Shown piece by piece: positions 3,945-32,634 of a stretch of 32,655 bases of DNA. The notes under the pieces were generated by a model, which ran no database searches, had not been told where the DNA came from, and was given only the letters and a program-made list of their open reading frames with translations. Both the position numbers and the translations under genes were made by a program. Origin of the DNA: Candidatus Hadarchaeota archaeon (lineage in GTDB: Archaea; CAYQAE01; CAYVLA01); the NCBI GenBank assembly GCA_964621445.1, contig CAZUNO010000028.1:1-32655 (forward strand). The letters are read 5' to 3'. The first letter of the stretch is position 1; each line of letters begins with the position of its first letter.

Positions 3945-4889
3945 ATGGAGGAAATAAGGGAAATCAAAAAGGGTATAAGGAGTCTTGAGATTCAAGGTGC
4001 CAGAAATGTGGCCATACAGGGCCTTAGAGCCATGAAGATTCTGGCACTCACCGCTGAAGCGGACTCTACCGCCGACCTGGTCAAACAGATGTCAAAGTTG
4101 GCACCTGAACTATCAAGGATAAGGGTGACCGAACCCGCCCTTAGGAACGGTCTTGCCACGGTCCTTGAAGCGATTAGGGACAGGGACGATATCGATCTGG
4201 AAAACCTCAGGAAATTGGCCGGGAAAGAGGTTGATCATTTTCACGATAAATTGAATTCCAATATAGCAAATATCTGCAAATATGGTTCAGAAGCCATTCC
4301 TGACGGATCAACTATTTTTACGCACTGTCACAGCTCCAGTGTAACCAGCCTCATAATTTCCCAGTCTAAGATCAAGGACCTCCGCGTGATCTGTACCGAG
4401 ACCAGGCCTAGGTGGCAGGGAAGAAAAACCGCATACGAGTTGGCAGAGAACCAGATAGACACCACCCTGTTCGTCGATTCGGCCACCCACATGTACCTCC
4501 CCGAGGCCGACCTAGTGCTCATCGGGGCAGATTCAGTCGGAGGAGGACGCCTCTATAATAAGATCGGGTCCTACGCATTGATTCACTTTGCCAAACGAAT
4601 GGATATACCCACATATTCCGTTTGCGAAACCCAGAAATTCGATCCATTAGTTGGAATTGGGTACGTTCAGCCAGTTGAGCAGAGACCAGCATCCGAGGTC
4701 ATCGATGGGGAGGTCCCGTTCAAGGTTCGTAACCCCGCATTCGAAACTGTTCCCGTGGATATGATGGAAGGAATAATCACCGAGGATGGAATAGTTAAAC
4801 CTCAAGAAGTAAGCGCAGTGCTGGAAAAGTACGAACATCTTGTGCCCGAATTAAAGAGATTGGTAGATTGGGATGACTGGGAGGAGTAA
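3945..4889 (+). CDS. Ribose 1,5-bisphosphate isomerase (eIF-2B alpha/beta/delta family)
   Basis: IQGARNVA, RVTEPALRNG, THCHSS (catalytic Cys), ETRPRWQG, IGAD, NKIGS, NPAFE; immediately upstream of AMP phosphorylase; RBS AAGGAG. Confidence 0.9.
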   Translation: MEEIREIKKGIRSLEIQGARNVAIQGLRAMKILALTAEADSTADLVKQMSKLAPELSRIRVTEPALRNGLATVLEAIRDRDDIDLENLRKLAGKEVDHFHDKLNSNIANICKYGSEAIPDGSTIFTHCHSSSVTSLIISQSKIKDLRVICTETRPRWQGRKTAYELAENQIDTTLFVDSATHMYLPEADLVLIGADSVGGGRLYNKIGSYALIHFAKRMDIPTYSVCETQKFDPLVGIGYVQPVEQRPASEVIDGEVPFKVRNPAFETVPVDMMEGIITEDGIVKPQEVSAVLEKYEHLVPELKRLVDWDDWEE

Positions 4890-4891
4890 TC

Positions 4892-6430
4892 ATTAAGCTA
4901 AGCACCAAGTTCCTTGATATCCAGGCGGGCGAATATCTTGTCGCCCTGTTAAACCAGAAGGATGCCGACGAGCTGGGGCTCAAGGCGGTGGACCGCGTCA
5001 GGCTCAAGGCGGATGGAAAGGACATCGTCGCCATCCTGGATATAGCAACTGAGACCGTGAAACAGGGCGAGATTGGAATCTACGAGGACCTGAAAAGGTA
5101 TCTAGGACAACCAGATGAAGTAGAGGTCACCCCCGCGGTTAAACCAAAATCGGTGAGGTACATCACCGATCGAATAAAGGGTAGGATGCTGCAGGCGGGC
5201 GAGCACTACCAGATCGTCAAGGACGTGATGGACAGAAGTCTCTCCTTCCTTGAAATAGCGGCCTTTATCACCTCTCTGGAAATGAGACCGCTCAGCCTTG
5301 ACGAGGCAGAGGCCATAACCAGGGCCATGGTTGACCTTGGCGAGGAACTAGAATGGAACCAGCACCCGATCTTCGACAAACACAGCATTGGTGGTGTCCC
5401 AGGAGACAAAACTACCATGTTGTTGGTACCAACCATAGCCAGCCTGGGTTACACCATACCAAAGACATCCTCCAGGGCCATCACCTCCCCAGCCGGGACT
5501 GCCGACAGGGTCGAGGTATTGTGTCCCGTCGACCTTGATATTGGAGAAATCAGGGAAGTGGTCTCCAAAACACAAGGATGTATGGTATGGGGAGGAGCGG
5601 TCGATCTGGCACCGGCCGATGATATATTCATTCAGGTGGAATATCCGTTATCCATAGATCCCCTTTACCTCCCATCCGTGTTGGGGAAGAAGAAGGCGGC
5701 GGGAGCCGATTACGTGGTCATTGACTTACCAACTGGAAAGGGCGCCAAGCTGAGCACCTTTGATGATGCCAACGAATTCGGTCGCGACTTCATACGCCTG
5801 GGCACCAAGCTGGGAATGCATATCCAGTGCGGAATTACCTTCGGGGAACAACCTATTGGAAGAAATATCGGCCCTGCGCTGGAAGCCCGTGAAGCCATCG
5901 AGACACTGCTGGACCCTCAAAAAACCCCGGACCTGGTTCACAAGGTCGCTTCGCTTTCAGGAATACTCCTGGGCATGCATGGAATCGAAAATGGAAAGGA
6001 AAAGGCCATGAATGCCATAAAATCTGGCAAGGCCTATGAGAAGATGAAGGAGATCATTGAGGCCCAGGGAGGCGACCCCGAAATCAAGCCAAACGAGATT
6101 TCGGTTGGGCAATGTACCCTGGATATAGAAAGCGAAAGGTCAGGTGAGGTGTTCTGGATAGATAACGGCCAGATCGTAAGTATCGCCAGGAGCCTCGGTA
6201 ATCCAAGTCATGGTGGCGCAGGCATCCAGATACCTCACAAGATAGGGGATAGGGTTGAGAAAGGGGACATCATCCTCAGACTATATGCTGACAAAGCAAG
6301 CAACCTGTCGAGAACGGAAAGAATGTTGGAGGATATGGAGCCTGTTATGATTGCCGACAAATTATCCGATCGCGTTCTCATGGGCCAGGTGGCGGAACTC
6401 CCTGAATCCACTTTCATCCTTGAGAGATGA
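4892..6430 (+). CDS. deoA: AMP phosphorylase (archaeal thymidine phosphorylase family)
   Basis: DKHSIGGVPGDKTT, PKTSSRAITSPAGTAD, WGGAVDLAPADD, QPIGRNIGPALEAREA, IIEAQGG. Frame is open upstream of ORF-track GTG 4988 to ATT 4892 and encodes the family N-terminus (KLSTKFLDIQAGEYLVALLNQKDADELGL). Confidence 0.93.
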   Translation: MKLSTKFLDIQAGEYLVALLNQKDADELGLKAVDRVRLKADGKDIVAILDIATETVKQGEIGIYEDLKRYLGQPDEVEVTPAVKPKSVRYITDRIKGRMLQAGEHYQIVKDVMDRSLSFLEIAAFITSLEMRPLSLDEAEAITRAMVDLGEELEWNQHPIFDKHSIGGVPGDKTTMLLVPTIASLGYTIPKTSSRAITSPAGTADRVEVLCPVDLDIGEIREVVSKTQGCMVWGGAVDLAPADDIFIQVEYPLSIDPLYLPSVLGKKKAAGADYVVIDLPTGKGAKLSTFDDANEFGRDFIRLGTKLGMHIQCGITFGEQPIGRNIGPALEAREAIETLLDPQKTPDLVHKVASLSGILLGMHGIENGKEKAMNAIKSGKAYEKMKEIIEAQGGDPEIKPNEISVGQCTLDIESERSGEVFWIDNGQIVSIARSLGNPSHGGAGIQIPHKIGDRVEKGDIILRLYADKASNLSRTERMLEDMEPVMIADKLSDRVLMGQVAELPESTFILER

Positions 6431-6746: not shown

Positions 6747-7739
6747 ATGCCCACAATATGTCTTGGAATGGAGGGAACGGCCCACACCTTGGGAATAGGG
6801 CTGGCGACCGACGAGGGGGAGATTCTGGCCAACAGGAAAAGCGAATATAGCCCGGTCCGTGGAGGAATCCATCCCAGAGAGGCCGCACAGCATCATGGCG
6901 AGGAACTATCCCAACTTCTGTCCGATACCATTTCCGGGGCGGACCTACAAATCACCGATATCGATGTCCTGGCCTTCTCCAGGGGGCCAGGCCTGGGACC
7001 ATGCCTTAGAACCGTCGCCACAGCTAGCAGGGCGCTTGCCATCCACCTGGGTATACCGCTGGTTGGCGTCAATCACTGTGTGGCCCATATAGAGATCGGG
7101 AAGCTTACCACTGATTGCCTGGACCCGGTTACCGTCTACGTATCGGGGGGAAGCACCCAGATCCTGGCCCATGTAGGGGGTCGGTACCGGGTTTTCGGGG
7201 AAACCCAGGACATTGCTCTGGGTAACGCCCTGGATACCTTTGCCCGGGAGGTGGGAATCGAAGGCTTTCCAGGAGGCAAGGAGGTCGAGAAGCTGGCAAA
7301 GGGTGGGCAATACGTCGATCTTCCCTACACGGTAAAGGGAACCGATCTGAGCTTCTCTGGTCTGGTTACACATGCTGTGGACCTCCATGAGGCGGGAGAA
7401 ACCGTTCCCAACCTCTGTTACTCGGTCCAGGAGGTGGCATTCTCGATGCTAACCGAGGTCGCTGAGAGGGCCCTCGCCCACACCGGGAAACGTGAGATAT
7501 TGCTCACCGGAGGAGTGGCCGCCAACAAGAGACTGTGTGACATGTTGAATACCATGTGCAGGGAGAGAGATGCCAGGTTCTCTGCTGTTCCCTTCCAGTA
7601 CGCCATGGATAATGGAGCGATGATCGCCTGGAACGGAATTCAGATATACGAATCCGGCGGATCCATCAAGGCAAGGGATTCCGTAGTTAGACCGAGATGG
7701 AGAACCGATCAGGTTGCCACCAGGTGGATAACAAAATGA
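6747..7739 (+). CDS. kae1: KEOPS complex tRNA N6-threonylcarbamoyltransferase Kae1
   Basis: GMEGTAHTLG, GGIHPREAAQHH, GPGLGPCL, VNHCVAHIEIG, YVSGG, GGVAAN, DNGAMIAW, RWRTDQV. Confidence 0.97.
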   Translation: MPTICLGMEGTAHTLGIGLATDEGEILANRKSEYSPVRGGIHPREAAQHHGEELSQLLSDTISGADLQITDIDVLAFSRGPGLGPCLRTVATASRALAIHLGIPLVGVNHCVAHIEIGKLTTDCLDPVTVYVSGGSTQILAHVGGRYRVFGETQDIALGNALDTFAREVGIEGFPGGKEVEKLAKGGQYVDLPYTVKGTDLSFSGLVTHAVDLHEAGETVPNLCYSVQEVAFSMLTEVAERALAHTGKREILLTGGVAANKRLCDMLNTMCRERDARFSAVPFQYAMDNGAMIAWNGIQIYESGGSIKARDSVVRPRWRTDQVATRWITK

Positions 7740-8380
7740 AAACTCTCGCCAAGGGAGCAGAGGCCGACCTCTACGTGACCGATTTCTCCCGCGTATATTT
7801 TTCCTCTTCCACATTTTCAAAGATAATCATCAAGAAAAGAATTCCCAAGGGTTACCGGGAACCGAGCCTTGACCTCCAACTTCGCAGGAGGAGGACCCTT
7901 TCGGAGGCCAAGATCATAGGCGACTCCCGGGAGGCCGGCGCCAATGTACCCTTCATCATCGGTGTCTGGCAGGATGAATGTATTATCGTTATGGAAAAGG
8001 TTGAGGGAGTAGTGCTTAAGGAGTACCTCAACCAGGCAGATCAGTCCCCTGAAGACGTCTGCAGGTCTGCAGGCCGCCAGCTAGGCATCCTTCATGCCAA
8101 TGGTATCATCCATGGTGACCCAACTACATCCAACATGATAGTCCGCGATGGGGAGGTACATCTCATCGATTTTGGCCTCGCCGAATACAGCGGAAGCCTG
8201 GAAAAAAGGGCGGTTGACCTCCATCTCCTTAAGACGGCCATGAAAAGCACCCATTACCAGGAATTTAGCAGCCTATACTCAGCATGCCTGAGGGGATACA
8301 AGGCAAGGGCTGGCCAGTATGACCAGGTTCTGGACAGGTGCCGTTCGATCGAGAAGAGAGGACGTTATGTTGACAGATAA
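7736..8380 (+). CDS. bud32: KEOPS complex kinase/ATPase Bud32
   Basis: KGAEA, KKRIPKGYR, HGDPTTSN, IDFGL, AVDLHL, RGRY; ATGA overlap with kae1 stop. Confidence 0.95.
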   Translation: MKTLAKGAEADLYVTDFSRVYFSSSTFSKIIIKKRIPKGYREPSLDLQLRRRRTLSEAKIIGDSREAGANVPFIIGVWQDECIIVMEKVEGVVLKEYLNQADQSPEDVCRSAGRQLGILHANGIIHGDPTTSNMIVRDGEVHLIDFGLAEYSGSLEKRAVDLHLLKTAMKSTHYQEFSSLYSACLRGYKARAGQYDQVLDRCRSIEKRGRYVDR

Positions 8381-23777: not shown

Positions 23778-24233
23778 CTATGTCACCCCAGTGATTAGTA
23801 CGGTTATAATGGCAACGACCAGGGATAGAACAAAGCTAATCGCGTTTCGGGCAAGGGCAAATTTCCTACCAAGGATGCCGGCTTCGGCCGGCAGCTGCAC
23901 GATTCCAACGGTGACCCAGGTTACTATGAAGGCCGTTACCGCGAACATGGTTACCCCCTGAGTCCTTAGCATTCCCCCTATAACGTAGGAGGTTATGGGG
24001 TTCCCGGCGGAAACGCTACCTATTGCTGCTCCCAATACCGTGTCCGACAGCATATTTCCTGTGAAAAGTTTACCCAGCATGCCTTCCGTGATGAAGGCCC
24101 TAAATAGACCTACTAGTAATACGACACCAGCAAGTAATGGTAACGTAGCCATGAAGCCTTTGACTGCTTTCTTGAGAGAACCTAGAACTGACCGATCTCG
24201 CTTACCTTCCTTTCCCTTCATAAGGCTAAACAC
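23778..24233 (-). CDS. Predicted permease (DUF318/ArsP-like, half protein A)
   Basis: GSVSAGNPITSYVIGG, WVTVGIVQLPAEA..LGRKFALARN; abuts the partner permease. Confidence 0.8.
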   Translation of the reverse strand: MFSLMKGKEGKRDRSVLGSLKKAVKGFMATLPLLAGVVLLVGLFRAFITEGMLGKLFTGNMLSDTVLGAAIGSVSAGNPITSYVIGGMLRTQGVTMFAVTAFIVTWVTVGIVQLPAEAGILGRKFALARNAISFVLSLVVAIITVLITGVT

Positions 24234-25095
24234 CCTTCAAGATGTCGCCCAGGTGATCAAAGAACTCCCTGCGATCCACTTTTACTGCAATATCGTGTTC
24301 TCCAAGCGGGTCCGGCCTCCACACTGTAAAAACCTTGCCCTCCTCTTCATGCACATTAACAGTTCCCCTTTCGAAGTCGCATATAGCTTCATCAAAGATG
24401 CTCGCTGCAGCCAGAGGATCGTGGAATGTCACGGAGTCATTTTCGCTGAACCAAACCTCGGCAAAATCCAATACCGGTCCCATAACTGGTGCTGTGAACC
24501 TATCCTTTATCCTATTCTGGCTCATTCGCACTTTTCTCGTCACGTTCAAACCCAGGGATCTATGCATCCTAATTGATGTGCCGTAGACAATGGATGTCGC
24601 CCTCGGGTCCCCGGAAGCATTCCACTCTCCGGTTGGATCCTGTTTACTGAAGTCCCCGCACATCATTACTAGTCCCTTTAGTAAACCAGCAGCTTGCCCA
24701 TCCTCAATAAAGAGTTTTGCCACGTTTGTCAGGGGGCCAGTTGCTAGTAGGATTATCTCGCCGGGATTCTCCCTTATGGTATCTCTGAGGAAATGGGTCG
24801 CTCTTCCTTCCGGAAAATTCTCGATATGATTCCACCGGCTAATCCGTTGGGCTTGGGGCGCGGTTTTCTGTTTCAAAATGCCGGAGATAGGCTTCTCTTC
24901 GCCTGGATAGATGGGTATCTTTCTTTTCGCCGCCATACATAGAGCACTAGCCAACATCGCCCTCTTGATGGGTTCACCCGTTACCGTAGTTATTCCCATT
25001 ATCTCGCACTTTTCCTGCATCAGGAGGTAAGCCAGGCAGAAAGCATCGTCAATGTCAGACCCAATATCGGTGTCAAAAATTATCTTCATGCTCAT
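24226..25095 (-). CDS. Nucleoside hydrolase (IUNH family)
   Basis: IIFDTDIGSDIDDA, TGPLTN, EWN...DP, GLNVT, HDPLAA. Start ATG 25095 or 25089; ORF track start 25332 overlaps the sulfatase and is too long. Confidence 0.92.
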   Translation of the reverse strand: MSMKIIFDTDIGSDIDDAFCLAYLLMQEKCEIMGITTVTGEPIKRAMLASALCMAAKRKIPIYPGEEKPISGILKQKTAPQAQRISRWNHIENFPEGRATHFLRDTIRENPGEIILLATGPLTNVAKLFIEDGQAAGLLKGLVMMCGDFSKQDPTGEWNASGDPRATSIVYGTSIRMHRSLGLNVTRKVRMSQNRIKDRFTAPVMGPVLDFAEVWFSENDSVTFHDPLAAASIFDEAICDFERGTVNVHEEEGKVFTVWRPDPLGEHDIAVKVDRREFFDHLGDILKGV

Positions 25096-25228: not shown

Positions 25229-26773
25229 ATGATTTCCCATACAAAGACAAGTTCAGAACAAGTCGATCTGGACCGTCCCAACATCCTTTTCATCCACGCC
25301 GAAAGCATGGATGGTAGAAAGATGGGGTGCATGGGCCACCCCGCGATGAAAAATGCAACTCCAAACCTGGACTCCCTGGCCCATGAAGGGGTAACCTTTG
25401 ACCATGCCTACTCCAACTGTCCAGTTTGCAACCCGTCGCGTGCCAGCATGTGGACAGGAAAATACCCTCACTATTACCACTGTTGGAATAACCATGAGGG
25501 TTTGAAAAGCAATATCCCCACCTTTCGCACCACCTTCGACAGCGCCGGTTACAAAACCGGGGCAATCGGACCGCTGGATTATGCTCACGGCAAGCATTCG
25601 ATCAGGGACCGTATCGGATCCTGGACCCGATCAGCAAAGATTTGGCGCCCCATCAATCGAAACGTGCTCCCCAGGGTAGTCGAAGATGACTCCCCTTACG
25701 CCTCCGACTGGGACCGAACCTACCAGGCAATGGACTGGCTTCGGGAAGCTTCCTCTAGCCGGCGTCCCTTTCTTCTCTATCTGACCACGGGTTTGGTCCA
25801 CCCCTCATTTGTAGCCCACAGGAGACACATGGAACTGATCGATAAGGATCTAATCGAGATACCGCCGGGATTAGGACCTCTGGAGGAGACGAAGCACCCA
25901 GTGGTACGGTATATGCGCGTGACCAAAAACTGCACCAATGAATTTCCCGAGGCTCTGGCCCTTCGGATTAGGCACGTCTACCTGGCAATGATTGCCGCTC
26001 TGGATGAGATGATAGGGCGGGTTGTAAATGCACTCGACGATCTCGGTCTGAGGAACTCCACCTATATCATATTCTCAAGCGACCACGGAGAGATGGCCGC
26101 CGAGCAGAATCAAATACTCAAACGGACCATGTTCGAGCCCTCCATCCATGAACCTCTAATTGTAAGCGGTCCCGGCGTGAAGAGGAATCTTCGTATCCAG
26201 CAACCGGTTTCACTGGTTGACATCTACCCCACCCTCCTCGATATGGGTGGCCTGGATTATGATGATTATGGAGAGCATCCTCAATATCCACAAGCGCTTG
26301 ATGGGCAGTCCCTGATGCCTCTCCTAAAAGGTAAAGATAGTCAGCGGCGAGATTGGGCCTACGCCGAATATAATGGGGACAGGTGCTGTACTGGAACCTT
26401 CATGCTAAGGAGAGGGAAATGGAAGTATATCAAATACATGGGATACCAACCCCAGCTATTCGATCTGGTGGAGGACCCCTGGGAGGATCGTGACCTTGCC
26501 AGGGAGAAGCCGGAGATGGTGGAAGAAATGGATGAAATCCTGTTAAAGAATTTCAATTGTGAATCCATCGATCAAGCTGCCAAGGAGTATGATAGGAGGG
26601 AATTCACGAAATGGAGGGAAGGGGCAAAGAAGGATGGCAGCTATCGAAATACCATGTCCAGGGTATATAGCGGATACGGCCCCCTCTCTATCGAGGATAT
26701 CATGCCCTGGACGGACGAGGAAGAGAAAAAAATCACCGACTGGTTAAACCAGATGCCTGAAAAAGGTAAATAA
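25229..26773 (+). CDS. Cys-type formylglycine sulfatase, arylsulfatase K-like
   Basis: PNILFI, CNPSRASMWTG (CxPxR), SSDHGE, SLVDIYPT, WKYI, QLFDL..DPWE; no signal peptide. Confidence 0.92.
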   Translation: MISHTKTSSEQVDLDRPNILFIHAESMDGRKMGCMGHPAMKNATPNLDSLAHEGVTFDHAYSNCPVCNPSRASMWTGKYPHYYHCWNNHEGLKSNIPTFRTTFDSAGYKTGAIGPLDYAHGKHSIRDRIGSWTRSAKIWRPINRNVLPRVVEDDSPYASDWDRTYQAMDWLREASSSRRPFLLYLTTGLVHPSFVAHRRHMELIDKDLIEIPPGLGPLEETKHPVVRYMRVTKNCTNEFPEALALRIRHVYLAMIAALDEMIGRVVNALDDLGLRNSTYIIFSSDHGEMAAEQNQILKRTMFEPSIHEPLIVSGPGVKRNLRIQQPVSLVDIYPTLLDMGGLDYDDYGEHPQYPQALDGQSLMPLLKGKDSQRRDWAYAEYNGDRCCTGTFMLRRGKWKYIKYMGYQPQLFDLVEDPWEDRDLAREKPEMVEEMDEILLKNFNCESIDQAAKEYDRREFTKWREGAKKDGSYRNTMSRVYSGYGPLSIEDIMPWTDEEEKKITDWLNQMPEKGK

Positions 26774-26807: not shown

Positions 26808-27890
26808 ATGAACGCACGACAAAGGTACATCGCGGTAACAAGCTTCAAGGAGCCCGATAGACCCTTTCTCTCCGGTTGGGGTATGTGGCCGGAAACGAGG
26901 TCAAGATGGCTCAATGAAGGTTGGGACGGAACCCCCATCGAGGAAATATTTCCCAGAGATCCCGTTATTCATCTCCGAGTTCCAGGGGGACCATGGCCTC
27001 CTTACGAGAAACAGGTACTTGAGGACACCCCGGAGACCGTGCTATATGTGGATCATGAAGGTATAATCAAACGGGAGTTTAAGGGCGATAGGGGCTGGTC
27101 AAGCATGCCACAGTTTGTGGAGTTTCCCGTTAAGAACAAACGGGACTTCGAAGAGATGGCAAGAACCAAGCTAGCGCCAAAACCGGACCAGAGACTGCCC
27201 AGCGATTGGGATGAGAAGGTGCAAAGATGGAAAGAGAGAGAGGAACCCCTCATGTATTTCATGGATAGATGGGGAGGGTTCTTTGGTCCGTTAAGAAACC
27301 TCATGGGAATAAAGCGCCTTTGCAGGGCCTTTTACGACGATCCCGAATTTGTCGAAAGAATGATGGACCAGAGGATGGAGGTCATTCTCGCGATTCTCAG
27401 GAGGGTTTTGGAGGACGTTGAACTCGATGGGTTCGGGTTTTGGGAGGATATGGGCTATAGGGACGGACCGCTCCTTTCGCCCCGACTTTTCAAAAGATAC
27501 ATGGTTCCAAGGTATAGAAAGATCTGCCGGTTCCTCCGCTCAAAAGGCGTAGACCTGATTTGCGTTGACAGTGACGGGGATGTCAGGAGACTAATCCCGC
27601 TTTGGCTTGAGGCTGGATTAAATGGAGTCTGGCCCCTGGAGGTTCAGGCCCATATGGATGTCTGTCAGCTACGTGAAAGATATGGAAAGAAACTGGTAAT
27701 GTTTGGTGGAATCGACAAGCGGGCGATCGCCTCCGGTAAGGAGCCGATTAAGCGAGAGGTGGACCGAGTTTGGCCTGTAGTGGAGAGCGGCGGCTATATA
27801 CCACATACCGATCACTCCATTCCCCCAGATGTCTCCTGGGATAATTTCAGGTATTACAGGCTATATCTAGCCAAAAAGGCGGGACTATAG
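26808..27890 (+). CDS. Uroporphyrinogen decarboxylase-like (URO-D/MtaA/CmuA superfamily) protein
   Basis: GFFGPLRNLMG, WEDMG...PLLSP, VDSDGD, FGGIDK, GGYIPHTDHSIPPDVSWDNF. Confidence 0.85.
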   Translation: MNARQRYIAVTSFKEPDRPFLSGWGMWPETRSRWLNEGWDGTPIEEIFPRDPVIHLRVPGGPWPPYEKQVLEDTPETVLYVDHEGIIKREFKGDRGWSSMPQFVEFPVKNKRDFEEMARTKLAPKPDQRLPSDWDEKVQRWKEREEPLMYFMDRWGGFFGPLRNLMGIKRLCRAFYDDPEFVERMMDQRMEVILAILRRVLEDVELDGFGFWEDMGYRDGPLLSPRLFKRYMVPRYRKICRFLRSKGVDLICVDSDGDVRRLIPLWLEAGLNGVWPLEVQAHMDVCQLRERYGKKLVMFGGIDKRAIASGKEPIKREVDRVWPVVESGGYIPHTDHSIPPDVSWDNFRYYRLYLAKKAGL

Positions 27891-27963: not shown

Positions 27964-29292
27964 ATGGCAGGAGACAGAACAGTCCGGGATAGACGGGAGA
28001 TACTCGATCAGGTTGATGGAGACCTGATCCTGGAAAACGCCGCTATCCTCTCCAATAAATCCGATAATACCGTGCATGTGCGTGGAACCACCAGGTGCGA
28101 GGGGGAGTGCACCTTCAATTGTAATCTAGAATCACAAAACCTGCAGGGAAAGAATGCAGATATTCTCTCCGAGGACCTTACGGTCCGCAAATCGATCAGG
28201 ATTAGGAATGGCCGGCTTACGGTGAACGGTTCCTGCTCAGCCTCCTTGGTCGAGGTCGAGGGATCTTTAGAGATACAGGAGGATATGTCCTGTGACACGG
28301 CTAGGATCGGACGCTCTTTGGATGTAGTGGGAAAGACCAGAGCTGGAACCGTGGATATCGGCGGCTCCTACGAGGCTAAATCCGATGCATTCATCGATGA
28401 GCTCAGGATTGGTGGCTCAGCTAATATAGCCGGTGGGCTGAAATCTAAGATTGTGGAGGTCGGCGGAAAGCTTTTCATTTCCGGGGTGCTTTATACCGAG
28501 AAGGTGGAAGTGGGGGGGTCACTGGAAACGCTATCTCCAGTCGACGTGCAGAAATTAGATGTTGGGGGAAAGGTAAGAATTGCTGGAGGCAAGATCAGAG
28601 AAGGGGTCGATGTTGGGGGCATATTCGAGGCATCTGAAAAAATCCAGTTCGGTCGTCTGGATGTCGGTGGAAAGGTGACCTTGAAAGGAGGAAACGGGAA
28701 GCAGATAGATGTCGGCGGATCCCTTACGAGCTCCGATGACCTAAAATTCGACTCCATTGAAGTAGGGGGCACGATCAAAATATCAGGGAATGGCATTGGA
28801 GAGAGGATAGAGGTAGGTGGCACCGTAAAAATTGACGGTGATCTCGATCTCTCCCAGAGTCTGGAGGTTGGGGGAAAGGCGATGATAGAGGGATCTCTGA
28901 AGGCCACGAATATAGAGGTGGGCGGAACTCTGGAGGCCTACAAAATCCAGGCCGTTGGCGATATTCTCACTAGGAATTTGAACACGGAAAAAGGCGCAAG
29001 GGCTGCTTTAATCGAACTCACCGAGAATGGAAACGCCAAAGGCCCTATTATTGCCCGGTCGGTTATCGTTGGTGAGGGAAGCACCGTGGACGATGTCTAC
29101 GCGATGACTATAGAACTAAGGGAGGGCTCCCGGGCTTCCGAACTTCACGGGGGAACCATCAAGTTAAAGGAAGGTAGCTCCGTTTCGGGGATTACCGAAT
29201 ACCGGGATTCCCTTGAAATTGAGGAGAACGTGAAATTCGGGCAAGACCCGGAACAGGTTGAGGAATTGCCCAGATTTCCAGAGAAAGAATAG
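27964..29292 (+). CDS. Bactofilin-like polymer-forming beta-helical repeat protein
   Basis: About 12-13 repeats of [VIL][ED][VI]GG[SKT] with 15-18 aa period; TTTAATAT TATA box upstream. Confidence 0.75.
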   Translation: MAGDRTVRDRREILDQVDGDLILENAAILSNKSDNTVHVRGTTRCEGECTFNCNLESQNLQGKNADILSEDLTVRKSIRIRNGRLTVNGSCSASLVEVEGSLEIQEDMSCDTARIGRSLDVVGKTRAGTVDIGGSYEAKSDAFIDELRIGGSANIAGGLKSKIVEVGGKLFISGVLYTEKVEVGGSLETLSPVDVQKLDVGGKVRIAGGKIREGVDVGGIFEASEKIQFGRLDVGGKVTLKGGNGKQIDVGGSLTSSDDLKFDSIEVGGTIKISGNGIGERIEVGGTVKIDGDLDLSQSLEVGGKAMIEGSLKATNIEVGGTLEAYKIQAVGDILTRNLNTEKGARAALIELTENGNAKGPIIARSVIVGEGSTVDDVYAMTIELREGSRASELHGGTIKLKEGSSVSGITEYRDSLEIEENVKFGQDPEQVEELPRFPEKE

Positions 29293-29318: not shown

Positions 29319-30275
29319 TTAAGACTCTAACCATCCCAAATCAAATACGCAGTGCCTTATCTTTTCCCTTTTGTAGGTATAAACCGTGTGTATTAAACCA
29401 TCTGTGGTCTGAATAACGGCCGGATAGGAGTACTCCCCGGGTTCATCCTCCAGCACCTTACGAACCCGCCAGCAATCCCCGTCATCCGACAACCCAACAT
29501 TCAAGGGGTACCTCGAATCCCTGCTATGATTATAGACCATAACCACGCAGCCATCATTCAACTTTACGGCATCTATACCCGAGTTTGGATTTGGTAGCTC
29601 CGTCTTCCTTGCCTCGGACCAGGTCTCCCCATAATCATCCGAATCCGCAATACATATGCTTCCGATCTCCTTTGTAGATCTGAGGAATGCCGTCACTCTA
29701 CCGGTCTCCAACTCTACCACCGTTGGCTGGATAAGACCGCGGTTAACACCCGGATAGGTGATTGGACCGTATCTCTCCCAGCAGCTCCCGTCCAAACTCA
29801 TCTTCTCCACCCAACCCGTCCAGGCCCGGTATGCCTCAACGGAGGTTGGACACAATATCTCCCCGTTTGACATCAAGATCGGTTTATTCTTTATGGGTCC
29901 AAGTATACCCGCGGGAAGGAGCGTCGGTTCAGACCATGAACGGCCATCATCATCGGAGAATACAAAGCCTCCCGACCACGATCTGGGGCTTTCACCAACT
30001 TTGTAGAAGAGCCACATCCTTTCGTCCGGAGCAAGAAAAAGGACCGGATTCCAGCAGGGGACACATTCCTCCGAAACGGCTTCCACGGGGCTCATCCATT
30101 CACCATTAACCTCCCTGCTGATCCAGATGCCAACGTCCTGCGCACCTTCTCTGGTCCCACCGAACCAGGAGGCAACGAGACCGCCTTGGGAATCCTGGAC
30201 TAGTGTCGATGCGTGGCACTGAGCAAAGGGTGCGCTATCGAAGATGAATTCCTTTTCCATCATCATTTCCCTCAT
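29319..30275 (-). CDS. BNR/Asp-box beta-propeller (BNR_2, sialidase-like glycosidase)
   Basis: CHAST, WFGGTREG, WNPVLF, Asp boxes SDDDGRSW and SDDYGETW, GPIKNKP, IQP, PNPNSG, EYSYP; no signal peptide; start may be 30266-30260. Confidence 0.88.
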   Translation of the reverse strand: MREMMMEKEFIFDSAPFAQCHASTLVQDSQGGLVASWFGGTREGAQDVGIWISREVNGEWMSPVEAVSEECVPCWNPVLFLAPDERMWLFYKVGESPRSWSGGFVFSDDDGRSWSEPTLLPAGILGPIKNKPILMSNGEILCPTSVEAYRAWTGWVEKMSLDGSCWERYGPITYPGVNRGLIQPTVVELETGRVTAFLRSTKEIGSICIADSDDYGETWSEARKTELPNPNSGIDAVKLNDGCVVMVYNHSRDSRYPLNVGLSDDGDCWRVRKVLEDEPGEYSYPAVIQTTDGLIHTVYTYKREKIRHCVFDLGWLES

Positions 30276-30369
30276 CAGGGCTGGAGTCCTTAAATATACA
30301 CCCGAAAGATTTGAACCTCAACAACATTATTCTTCTCTTCTAAATCCTAACCAAGGGTGTGAAGAGAAT

Positions 30370-31554
30370 ATGAAAGAGGATGACATCATAGATGGGATAC
30401 TGGATTTGAAAATAGAAACCCCGTCCTGGGCATACGGCAATAGTGGCACCCGTTTTGCTACCTTTCCCTGGCCGGGTGCTGCACGAAATATATGGGAAAA
30501 GATCGATGATGCTTCCTACGTTAACAAAATTACAGGCGCGGCCCCGAGAATTGCATTACATATTCCCTGGGATGCCGTTGATGACTACTCCGAACTAGGC
30601 AATTACGCCCGGGAAAAAGGGTTGGAAATAGGTGCTATCAATCCGAACCTCTTTCAGGACCCGGATTATAAGCTTGGAAGCCTTTGTAACCCGGATCCCG
30701 ATATCAGGAACAAAGCCCTGGATCACGTTACTGACTGTATTGAGATATGCGAGTTAACGGGGGCCGATATACTCAGCCTTTGGTTGGCTGATGGTACAAA
30801 TTATTTTGGCCAGGACGATCTGGTCGCCAGGAGGAATTTTCTAATCGAGGCATTATTCGAGATATATGAGGCCCTTCCGTCAAGGGTTCGAATGCTTATA
30901 GAGTACAAATTTTATGAGCCGTCATTCTACCATACAGACATCCCTGACTGGGGGACCTCACTTCTTCTATCAAGAAAACTCGGAGAAAAAGCCCAGGTCC
31001 TGATCGATACAGGTCACCATCCGCTGGCCACAAATGTTGAACAGATCGTGGCCAATCTTATCGATGAGAGAGCTCTGGGGGGGTTCCACTTCAATAGTCG
31101 AAATTATGGCGATGACGACCTCGTAGTTGGAGCCTCAAATCCGTTCCAGCTCTACAGGATCTTTCATGAAATAGTGGAAGCTGAGCTTTCGAGCGGGGAA
31201 CGTGCCCACTGCGCAGAAAATATAGCCTATATGATTGATCAGAGCCATTGCATTGAGGGAAAGATAGAACCGATGATAAAATCCATAGTAAATTGCCAGA
31301 GATCCAGAGCCAAGGCCCTGCTCACCGACAGGGATCGGCTGCGTGAACTTCAAAGGGAGGGAGATGTCATGGGAGCCCATGAATTTGTAATGGAGAGTTT
31401 TAGGGCCGAAGTCTCCAGTCTGCTGGACAGAGCTCGCCGAAAGCTTGGCATACAGAAGGACCCAATCCGTGTCTACAGGAAGGGCGATTACAGGAGGAGA
31501 ATGACTCGCGAGAGGGGAGTTCACACTGAATCAGAGGGAGGATACCCAGAATAA
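30370..31554 (+). CDS. rhaI: L-rhamnose isomerase (RhaI/xylose-isomerase-like type)
   Basis: IETPSWAYGNSGTRF, ALHIPWD, INPNLFQ, WLADGTNY, EYKFYEP, DTGHH, GGFHFNSR.YGDDDL, DQSH..E.K; start ATG 30370. Confidence 0.92.
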   Translation: MKEDDIIDGILDLKIETPSWAYGNSGTRFATFPWPGAARNIWEKIDDASYVNKITGAAPRIALHIPWDAVDDYSELGNYAREKGLEIGAINPNLFQDPDYKLGSLCNPDPDIRNKALDHVTDCIEICELTGADILSLWLADGTNYFGQDDLVARRNFLIEALFEIYEALPSRVRMLIEYKFYEPSFYHTDIPDWGTSLLLSRKLGEKAQVLIDTGHHPLATNVEQIVANLIDERALGGFHFNSRNYGDDDLVVGASNPFQLYRIFHEIVEAELSSGERAHCAENIAYMIDQSHCIEGKIEPMIKSIVNCQRSRAKALLTDRDRLRELQREGDVMGAHEFVMESFRAEVSSLLDRARRKLGIQKDPIRVYRKGDYRRRMTRERGVHTESEGGYPE

Positions 31555-31638: not shown

Positions 31639-32634
31639 GTGCAATCATTCAAATTAGTTCTTATCATTCTGGCCTGCTTGATATTGTCCCCGACAGGTTA
31701 CGGTCGCCAACCCAGAAGGGATCCCTTCTCAGGTAGGATAAGAATTCTCTACTACGGTGATGCCCTGGGCTCCAGCCCCTATCCAACCTTCGTAATAGAC
31801 CCCCTAACCAGCGCGGTGGCTCTAACAGGGATGAGAGGAACCCCAAAACAGATAGATAAGAGGATGAGGATCCTCATGCCTCGGACCTATCAGGATCTTT
31901 TGGACCGATATGATCTAATCATTCTCAGCGATGCAATAGTCAAGAACTTCCGCAGCGAATTCATCGTCTGGTTCCGAGATTCGGTATTGAATGACGGCCT
32001 CGGCCTGTTGATGGTGGGTGGCTATGGCAGCTTCGGGGGCGTTCCCTTTCTGGAATCCAACTGGGGGGAAACGGTGCTCCAGGAGGCGCTCTGCGTGAAT
32101 TGCATCTCCAGGGGATGGGACATGGGAGACCAATCTCCTTCGCAGGCAGGTATCCTGGAGGTGATGGATGAGGATGATGAATTCATGTCTTCACTTCCCT
32201 TCGATAGCATTGGCCGTTATGGGGTATTCCACGGGGCCAACATAGTCGAGCCCAGGCAGTCCTCGAAACTACTCGCCAACTACAGAAAGAGTGGCGGGAA
32301 GGCCTACCCACTTCTGGTTTATGGGGATATGGGAAAGGGTTCATCGGTTGCATTCTGTTCGGATTGGACCCCCTATGGGGGGATCGATTTCATCCGGTGG
32401 TCCTACTATCCTGACTTCGCATTGAACCTGGCACTTTACACCACGGGTAATCCAGTTCCACAGGATATCAATATGGCTCACAGAGCGAGGGAGCTAATGC
32501 AAGATTACACCGGGCTGCTTCAGACCCTTCATAGCGTAATGGAGTTTGTTGAGAGATTCGGCGCGAATCTGGCAAGCGCAGAGGAGTTGCTAATAGATAT
32601 AGACTACAGAGGCTCGGGAGTCGCTCCTCTCTGA
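31639..32634 (+). CDS. Secreted protein with glutamine-amidotransferase-like (GATase1-like/DUF1355-type) domain
   Basis: Signal peptide, RILYYGD, YDLIILSD, GLLMVGGYGSFGG, PLLVYGDMGKGSSVAF..DW; helical C-terminal segment. Confidence 0.7.
   Translation: MQSFKLVLIILACLILSPTGYGRQPRRDPFSGRIRILYYGDALGSSPYPTFVIDPLTSAVALTGMRGTPKQIDKRMRILMPRTYQDLLDRYDLIILSDAIVKNFRSEFIVWFRDSVLNDGLGLLMVGGYGSFGGVPFLESNWGETVLQEALCVNCISRGWDMGDQSPSQAGILEVMDEDDEFMSSLPFDSIGRYGVFHGANIVEPRQSSKLLANYRKSGGKAYPLLVYGDMGKGSSVAFCSDWTPYGGIDFIRWSYYPDFALNLALYTTGNPVPQDINMAHRARELMQDYTGLLQTLHSVMEFVERFGANLASAEELLIDIDYRGSGVAPL

Follow-up and report, generated by a model that had tools for sequence, protein, structure and literature searches.

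A predicted cytoplasmic sulfatase of the arylsulfatase K family, probably acquired from bacteria, in a Hadarchaeota archaeon

Does an archaeal sulfatase that carries the signature motifs of the animal enzyme arylsulfatase K (ARSK) belong to the same family, and does it bear on how the animal enzyme arose? This question is posed by a gene on contig CAZUNO010000028.1 of a Candidatus Hadarchaeota archaeon, a stretch of 32,655 nucleotides that we refer to in full as the window. Metazoan ARSK is the glucuronate-2-sulfatase (EC 3.1.6.18), according to the accessible text of a review (PMC7793863). We propose that the window gene encodes a cytoplasmic, Cys-type, formylglycine-dependent sulfatase of the ARSK family, that it was acquired from bacteria, and that its predicted substrate is a small imported sulfate ester. 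We put the probability of this reading at roughly 0.8. The gene and its predicted catalytic motif are located as follows:

25229..26773, + strand: formylglycine-dependent sulfatase of the ARSK family (open reading frame, PF00884 and SGSH_C domains, identity to ARSK, tree, AlphaFold2 model)
25427..25441, + strand: codons of C67-N-P-S-R71, a CxPxR motif whose Cys is the predicted formylglycine site (translation, conservation in alignments)

Positions 25229 to 26773 form one open reading frame (ORF) of 514 codons that begins with ATG and contains no internal stops. The Pfam Sulfatase domain (PF00884) occupies residues 17–341 of the protein (E = 5.4e-50; 170.8 bits against a curated cut-off of 25) and covers profile positions 1–300 of 301; an SGSH_C domain follows it (E = 3.3e-15). 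The collection's own gene call (P0035) is a 314-residue fragment that starts at Met201 (window 25829–26773) and lacks the N-terminal catalytic half, including CxPxR, whereas the full 514-residue frame aligns end to end with homologues. Annotation-based surveys may have missed this sulfatase because of the shortened call.

Residues C67, P69, R71, D285, H286, and K298 are invariant in an alignment of the close clade (A1) and in a second alignment that includes metazoan ARSKs (A2). In a third alignment (A3), H286 alone is invariant and each of the other five is at least 90% conserved. E25 aligns with an Asp of both ARSK and choline sulfatase at the first metal-ligand position. In the AlphaFold2 model of the protein (pLDDT 91.9), the modifiable Cys67 lies at the N-terminus of a helix spanning residues 67–76. 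The nearest fold is that of choline sulfatase BetC (template-modelling score 0.72–0.75, 24–26% identity); no structure has been solved for any ARSK-family member.

The initial annotation of this gene listed motifs described as specific to ARSK, and all those quoted are present in the translation, collinear and in the order given: ESMDGR (residues 25–30), WNNHEGL (86–92), LDYAHGKHSIRDRIGSWTR (116–134), DWDRT..AMDWLR (160–172), HPV..Y...TKNCT (223–236), and EYDRREFTKW...ITDWL (453–506). The strings given for human ARSK were checked against its orthologues from sturgeon, a hemichordate, and a sponge, not against the human protein. The sturgeon counterparts in A2 are DSFDGR, WNNYKCL, VDYKSGDHSLSNRVEAWTR, DWNETDSAARWIR, HQVDYYSTYTKNCS, and QYNKQQFISW...INKWL, and the hemichordate and sponge ARSK-like proteins also align with the motifs of the window protein. 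The claimed resemblance along the whole length therefore agrees with real metazoan ARSKs.

Sequence searches place the protein in the same family. A representative library of 1.84 billion proteins was searched, and five metazoan proteins served for comparison: P0136 and P0271 from the sturgeon/paddlefish ARSK cluster, P0129 (Ptychodera flava, ‘arylsulfatase K-like’), P0144 (Sycon ciliatum, ‘arylsulfatase K-like’), and P0140 from Oscarella. Identity to the metazoan ARSKs was 33–40% over nearly the full length. The Ptychodera protein scored highest (E = 1.1e-86, 308 bits, 40% identity), followed by sturgeon P0136 (E = 1.7e-78, 281 bits), P0140 (259 bits), and P0144 (249 bits), a likeness far beyond chance. 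In the reverse direction, three metazoan ARSKs searched against the whole genome (assembly G000) gave strong matches to two genes, one on contig C6 (19.5–21.0 kb, 264–323 bits) and the window gene (252–305 bits), and the next-best sulfatase of the genome reached at most 177 bits. When solved structures were searched by sequence, choline sulfatase 6fny was best at 155.9 bits, ahead of the Bacteroides 2-O glycosaminoglycan sulfatase BT1596 (95 bits) and iduronate-2-sulfatase (81 bits). A table in the accessible text of the review lists ARSK as S1_7 (PMC7793863), which is odd beside the 81 bits to iduronate-2-sulfatase, and we do not rely on it. Together, these comparisons support well the assignment of the window protein to the ARSK family, closer to ARSK than to other characterised sulfatase families.

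We inferred a maximum-likelihood tree with IQ-TREE (LG+C20+F+G4 by posterior mean site frequencies) from 65 rows and 500 columns. The set comprised the window protein, 29 of the 80 loci kept from a one-genome-per-species scan, three loci from a further genome search, and 32 proteins from two protein searches and a cluster look-up, among them the five metazoan ARSKs and six choline sulfatases as outgroup; rows were picked to span the range of identities and no others were included. The window protein belongs to an ARSK-family clade of 48 rows (support 100/100, stem of 0.8 changes per column) that includes all five metazoan ARSKs, with the choline sulfatases and three other clades outside. Within it, the window protein pairs (100/99) with its closest homologue, P0001 (74% identity), encoded on an independent 157-kb metagenome contig (L119, 57.6% GC content). 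This pair sits inside a 14-row clade (100/100) whose remaining 12 rows are bacterial and come from at least seven phyla (represented by Armatimonadota, WS1, Latescibacterota, Kiritimatiellota, Verrucomicrobiota, Gemmatimonadota, Brocadiaceae, and Spirochaetales).

The distribution of relatives points in the same direction. In the one-genome-per-species scan, all 25 loci at 57–64% identity were in named bacterial genomes, and the sole archaeal locus among the 80 kept, from a Bathyarchaeia metagenome-assembled genome (MAG; L072), was 43% identical. The host's phylum is represented in the collection by five species-level genomes (G000–G004); no close copy of the window gene was found in the other four, two of which carry just an orthologue of the C6 gene (41% identity). 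On this pattern of sequences, the window gene was most likely acquired from bacteria. Such a history agrees with Barbeyron et al. (2016; PMC5066984), whose accessible text infers that archaeal formylglycine-dependent sulfatases are bacterial acquisitions.

The N-terminus of the protein consists of about 16 polar residues ahead of the first strand and contains no signal peptide, which bears out the earlier description of it as cytoplasmic. The N-terminal motif was located in 121 of 133 prokaryotic or metagenomic family members; the leader before it had a median of 8 and a maximum of 28 residues, and in no case a hydrophobic core. The five metazoan ARSKs, in contrast, have hydrophobic leaders of 27–40 residues. 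The whole prokaryotic branch of the family thus appears, from its N-termini, to be cytoplasmic, which fits both maturation by the radical-SAM enzyme anSME and a small imported substrate.

No maturase was matched among the 30 window ORFs scanned, as had been noted at the outset, and the genome search for anSME or a formylglycine-generating enzyme (FGE) that had been recommended located candidates for both outside the window. The anSME gene (contig C13, 16943–17998; TIGR03942, 404.1 bits against a cut-off of 349.45) is 1.7 kb from another sulfatase gene, and an FGE-sulfatase domain lies in a 681-residue frame on contig C20. By analogy with the established chemistry of S1 sulfatases, anSME would oxidise Cys67 of C-N-P-S-R to formylglycine. 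A divalent metal would be bound near the hydrated aldehyde by E25 (Asp in ARSK), D285, and H286, and the aldehyde would attack the sulfate ester and release sulfate. Because the protein lacks a leader, the enzyme would act on small sulfated compounds that have already been imported, most likely a terminally sulfated sugar or short oligosaccharide. Family resemblance to ARSK makes a terminal 2-O-sulfated uronate our leading guess.

The genes that flank the sulfatase were examined for indications of its role:

24226..25095, − strand: nucleoside-hydrolase-family gene, divergent from the sulfatase (IU_nuc_hydro, in-frame ATGs)
26808..27890, + strand: URO-D-superfamily protein (PF01208, E = 1.8e-12), 34 nucleotides 3′ of the sulfatase on the same strand
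27964..29292, + strand: repeat protein with weak bactofilin similarity (Pfam Bactofilin, E = 1.9e-7)
29319..30275, − strand: BNR_2 (sialidase-like beta-propeller) protein (PF13088, E = 4.5e-79)
30244..31554, + strand: L-rhamnose isomerase (TIGR02635, 540.5 bits against a cut-off of 531.35)
31639..32634, + strand: GATase1_like protein (PF07090, E = 1.2e-19)

The URO-D-like gene follows the sulfatase at the same distance of 34 nucleotides in both archaeal contigs. It is probably co-transcribed with the sulfatase and may have been transferred together with it. Its product shows a weak MtaA-like match (24 bits), and its nearest Atlas clusters are bacterial (Verrucomicrobiota and Acidobacteriota). 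Upstream, a 368-residue ORF reaching position 25332 on the minus strand is best treated as an over-extension of the nucleoside-hydrolase gene, because IU_nuc_hydro starts at its residue 84 and positions 25095 and 25089 offer in-frame ATGs. The extended part has a single match, which runs antisense to the N-terminus of a sulfatase in locus L040; with the shorter start, an intergenic region of about 134 nucleotides separates this gene from the divergent sulfatase gene. Further downstream, the equivalog-level L-rhamnose isomerase lies between the BNR_2 and GATase1_like genes, an arrangement in an archaeon that is kept in L119. Relatives of the GATase1_like gene also occur beside ARSK-family paralogue loci of the C6 type, with tblastn matches in L037 (two) and L038. 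The URO-D-like, BNR_2, L-rhamnose isomerase, and GATase1-like neighbours point loosely to sugar metabolism.

Several observations weigh against our reading. What speaks for the uronate guess is the 33–40% identity to ARSK by itself, because there are no glycosaminoglycan or uronate genes in the window neighbourhood and no conserved neighbour. A tblastn search with 11 window neighbours against 83 loci returned just scattered weak URO-D-like matches at three loci. Similarly, a Pfam scan of 11 bacterial loci revealed no recurrent partner; it covered 61 of 103 ORFs from 11 of 12 loci, having set aside L043 (a near-duplicate of L041), the sulfatase ORFs, and some short ORFs. The gene order common to the two related archaea may stem from their ancestry, not from functional linkage. 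In the literature searched, judged from titles and the openings of abstracts, work on glucuronate-2-sulfatase all apparently concerns animal ARSK, and no characterised prokaryotic member was found there. The first metal ligand is Glu in the window protein and Asp in ARSK. Finally, the backbone of the family tree lacks resolution and the tree is unrooted within the family; the proposed direction of transfer therefore depends on taxon counts and distribution.

The neighbourhood gives some reason to consider another substrate for an ARSK-family enzyme, namely a sulfated deoxyhexose or a rhamnose-containing oligosaccharide (ulvan- or rhamnan-sulfate-like) in place of 2-O-sulfated glucuronate. The L-rhamnose isomerase and BNR_2 genes lie 2.5–3.5 kb downstream of the sulfatase, and both are kept in the syntenic archaeal contig. 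However, both are in other transcription units than the sulfatase, a search of 83 other loci found no rhamnose isomerase close to the sulfatase, and the extra context of L119 contained no further rhamnose-pathway or uronate genes that we could see. Given that synteny of close relatives is weak evidence of linkage, we consider the rhamnose substrate unlikely and retain an imported sulfate ester, with the uronate as leading guess, as the preferred interpretation.

Choline-O-sulfatase activity (BetC-like, SulfAtlas S1_12), with a role in osmoprotectant or sulfur metabolism, would be a different assignment altogether. Choline sulfatases are indeed the best match of the window protein both among NCBIfam models and among solved structures, they share with it a long C-terminal helical extension, and the IMG database calls one family member (P0138) ‘choline-sulfatase’. 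Yet the score against the choline-sulfatase equivalog TIGR03417, 218.5 bits, is far under its cut-off of 433.45, which 11 of 90 representatives scanned do pass. These 11 true choline sulfatases score about 200 bits against the window protein, compared to 249–308 bits for the ARSKs; six of these choline sulfatases were placed in the tree, where they form a clade of their own (100/99). A choline sulfatase query against the genome prefers sulfatases on contigs C1 (306 bits) and C13 (283 bits) over the window gene (210 bits), and no bet genes were detected among the 30 window ORFs scanned. The grouping with choline sulfatases that the initial annotation had raised as a possible outcome is not what we find, and we judge this function very unlikely for the ARSK-family enzyme encoded here.

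The initial annotation further proposed that an archaeal counterpart, sister or ancestral to eukaryotic ARSK, would inform on the origin of the animal enzyme. In favour of this, the protein is of the same family with collinear motifs, and family members occur in other archaea, namely a Lokiarchaeota MAG (P0125) and the Bathyarchaeia MAG. The tree places the two apart: the metazoan ARSKs (99/96) are sister to rows from Trueperaceae (Deinococcota) and Clostridia/Eubacteriales (Bacillota), together L073, L074, and L093, with support of 99/97, whereas the window gene lies deep within a bacterial group (100/100). In the approximately unbiased (AU) test, forcing the archaeal pair with the ARSKs cost 169.9 log-likelihood units and was rejected (p-AU = 0.00022). 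Forcing the whole 14-row clade with them cost 29.5 units and was likewise rejected (p-AU = 0.0072), although this second test carries less weight because its group was chosen with the tree already in view. The seven archaeal rows split over three separate positions: the window pair, the Bathyarchaeia row, and the C6 paralogue group, in which the C6 paralogue and its orthologues from G001 and G003 stand beside the Lokiarchaeota MAG, Hydrogenedentota, and Phycisphaerae. In addition, ARSK resembles the C6 paralogue slightly more than it does the window gene. The simplest reading of the archaeal rows would be several transfers from bacteria to archaea. An archaeal sister or ancestor of ARSK is thus highly improbable, and this part of the initial annotation does not stand: the gene groups with a broad set of bacteria and not as sister to ARSK, and therefore has no special bearing on the origin of that enzyme.

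For the evolution of ARSK the message is negative for archaea, since the animal enzyme branches inside the diversity of bacteria. The position of sponge-to-vertebrate ARSKs inside prokaryotic diversity hints, on tree topology, at a bacterial origin. No non-metazoan eukaryote was seen among the ARSK-family representatives whose names were looked up.

The archaeal host is secure, in agreement with the initial annotation. The window contig also encodes Kae1, a Bud32-like kinase, an aIF-2B-family protein, a nucleoside-phosphorylase-family protein, CofD, and aldehyde:ferredoxin oxidoreductase (AFOR). Among named sequences, Kae1 is best matched by archaeal ones (MSBL1, Bathyarchaeia, and Hadarchaeota, 55–60% identity). 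The assembly (3.21 Mb in 89 contigs, 96% complete, 4.2% estimated contamination) contains an rRNA operon that matches the Rfam archaeal small-subunit (1462 bits, full length) and large-subunit models, and GC content along the window is even at 0.48–0.54. Searches of the window for tRNA genes and Rfam families found none. Two gene pairs on the contig were recorded in passing:

3945..6430, + strand: adjoining aIF-2B-family and nucleoside-phosphorylase-family genes, resembling the archaeal AMP-salvage pair
6747..8380, + strand: Kae1 and Bud32-like kinase genes, the first overlapping the start of the second

L119 repeats the gene order of the window from the AFOR gene through the GATase1-like gene, with protein identities of 53–83%: AFOR 83%, P5C reductase 69%, MGMT 57%, cupin 75%, DUF1847 81%, nucleoside hydrolase 59%, sulfatase 74%, URO-D-like 74%, bactofilin-like 53%, BNR_2 66%, rhamnose isomerase 72%, and GATase1-like 80%. 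P0001 is best read, from its sequence and setting, as the orthologue in a related archaeon. Once transferred from bacteria into the archaeal lineage, perhaps along with the neighbouring URO-D-like gene, the sulfatase gene would then have been inherited vertically in at least two related archaea. The same order on an independent contig makes a chimera or contaminant very unlikely. Bacterial contamination or misassembly in an archaeal bin, which the exclusively bacterial nearest named relatives and the 4.2% contamination estimate might suggest, is hardly credible given the six genes listed above on the same contig, the even GC content, and the sulfatase lying between the same neighbours on 157-kb L119.

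The window gene is not the only sulfatase of this host. A second ARSK-family paralogue lies on contig C6 (19504–20994, − strand; locus L038), is about 39–41% identical to the window gene, and is shared with two family relatives (L036 and L037). In total, the genome has 47 matches to the Sulfatase domain PF00884; the window gene is thus one of about 47, of which two are ARSK-family paralogues. On a rough estimate, the domain starts after no more than 26 residues in 43 of the 47, and the other four also lack a hydrophobic core; at least 32 are Cys-type by regular expression. The three family relatives of the host have 19, 22, and 36 sulfatase matches, and there are none in the one remaining genome of the phylum. 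As of 2016, formylglycine-dependent sulfatases were reported from only two archaeal classes, according to the accessible text of Barbeyron et al. (PMC5066984). Our literature search, judged in part from titles and the openings of abstracts and with subscription journals mostly outside its coverage, found no description of sulfatase-rich archaea.

A tentative wider interpretation is that this archaeal family is specialised in sulfated glycans: it may import sulfated oligosaccharides and strip them in the cytoplasm with 19–47 leaderless, anSME-matured sulfatases per genome, including two ARSK-family enzymes for terminal uronates. If so, these archaea would be functional analogues of the sulfatase specialists among Kiritimatiellota and Planctomycetota, with a repertoire built by repeated gene transfer from bacteria. 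We see the host, with 47 sulfatase matches and an anSME in one archaeal genome, as a more interesting point than the gene itself.

Compared to known systems, the window protein shares with metazoan ARSK its membership of the 48-row clade, the motifs [DE]SxDGR, WNN, DYxxGxHS...WTR, and HPV...TKNC, a C-terminal W, and a Cys-type CxPxR site, which for the window protein is read from the sequence. The two differ in several respects. ARSK is lysosomal and carries leaders of 27–40 residues, whereas the window protein has no signal peptide and would be cytoplasmic; ARSK is matured by the formylglycine-generating enzyme of the endoplasmic reticulum, while maturation of the window protein would fall to anSME. 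The first metal-ligand position is Glu in place of Asp, the insertion found after the PHP motif in deuterostomes is missing, and there is an extra C-terminal segment at about residues 477–493. In the tree, the window gene is not a sister lineage of ARSK. Among solved structures, the choline sulfatase BetC of Ensifer meliloti (PDB 6fny, 6g5z, and 7pth) is closest and shares the two-domain fold with its C-terminal helical extension, but BetC belongs to a separate clade and lacks the ARSK-family motifs, and the window protein scores below the equivalog cut-off.

The nearest counterparts are bacterial ‘arylsulfatase K’-like sulfatases from MAGs of Armatimonadota, Latescibacterota, WS1, Kiritimatiellota, Verrucomicrobiota, and Planctomycetota, which are 57–66% identical to the window protein and share its length, its leaderless N-terminus, and its 14-row clade. 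They differ in that the host of the window gene is archaeal and its neighbourhood is absent from the bacterial loci examined. The name ‘arylsulfatase K’ is already attached by IMG to 11 of 120 homologues, among the matches listed, and this prokaryotic ARSK-like family has therefore been recognised by automatic annotation. Because the whole prokaryotic branch has no characterised member, an assay of any one of its proteins would give a function to hundreds of metagenomic sequences that at present bear the name ‘arylsulfatase K’ through similarity alone. Our verdict is that the window gene is a new archaeal member of an already known, biochemically uncharacterised prokaryotic ARSK-like family, and that it adds an archaeal lineage with few sampled genomes to the known range of the ARSK family.

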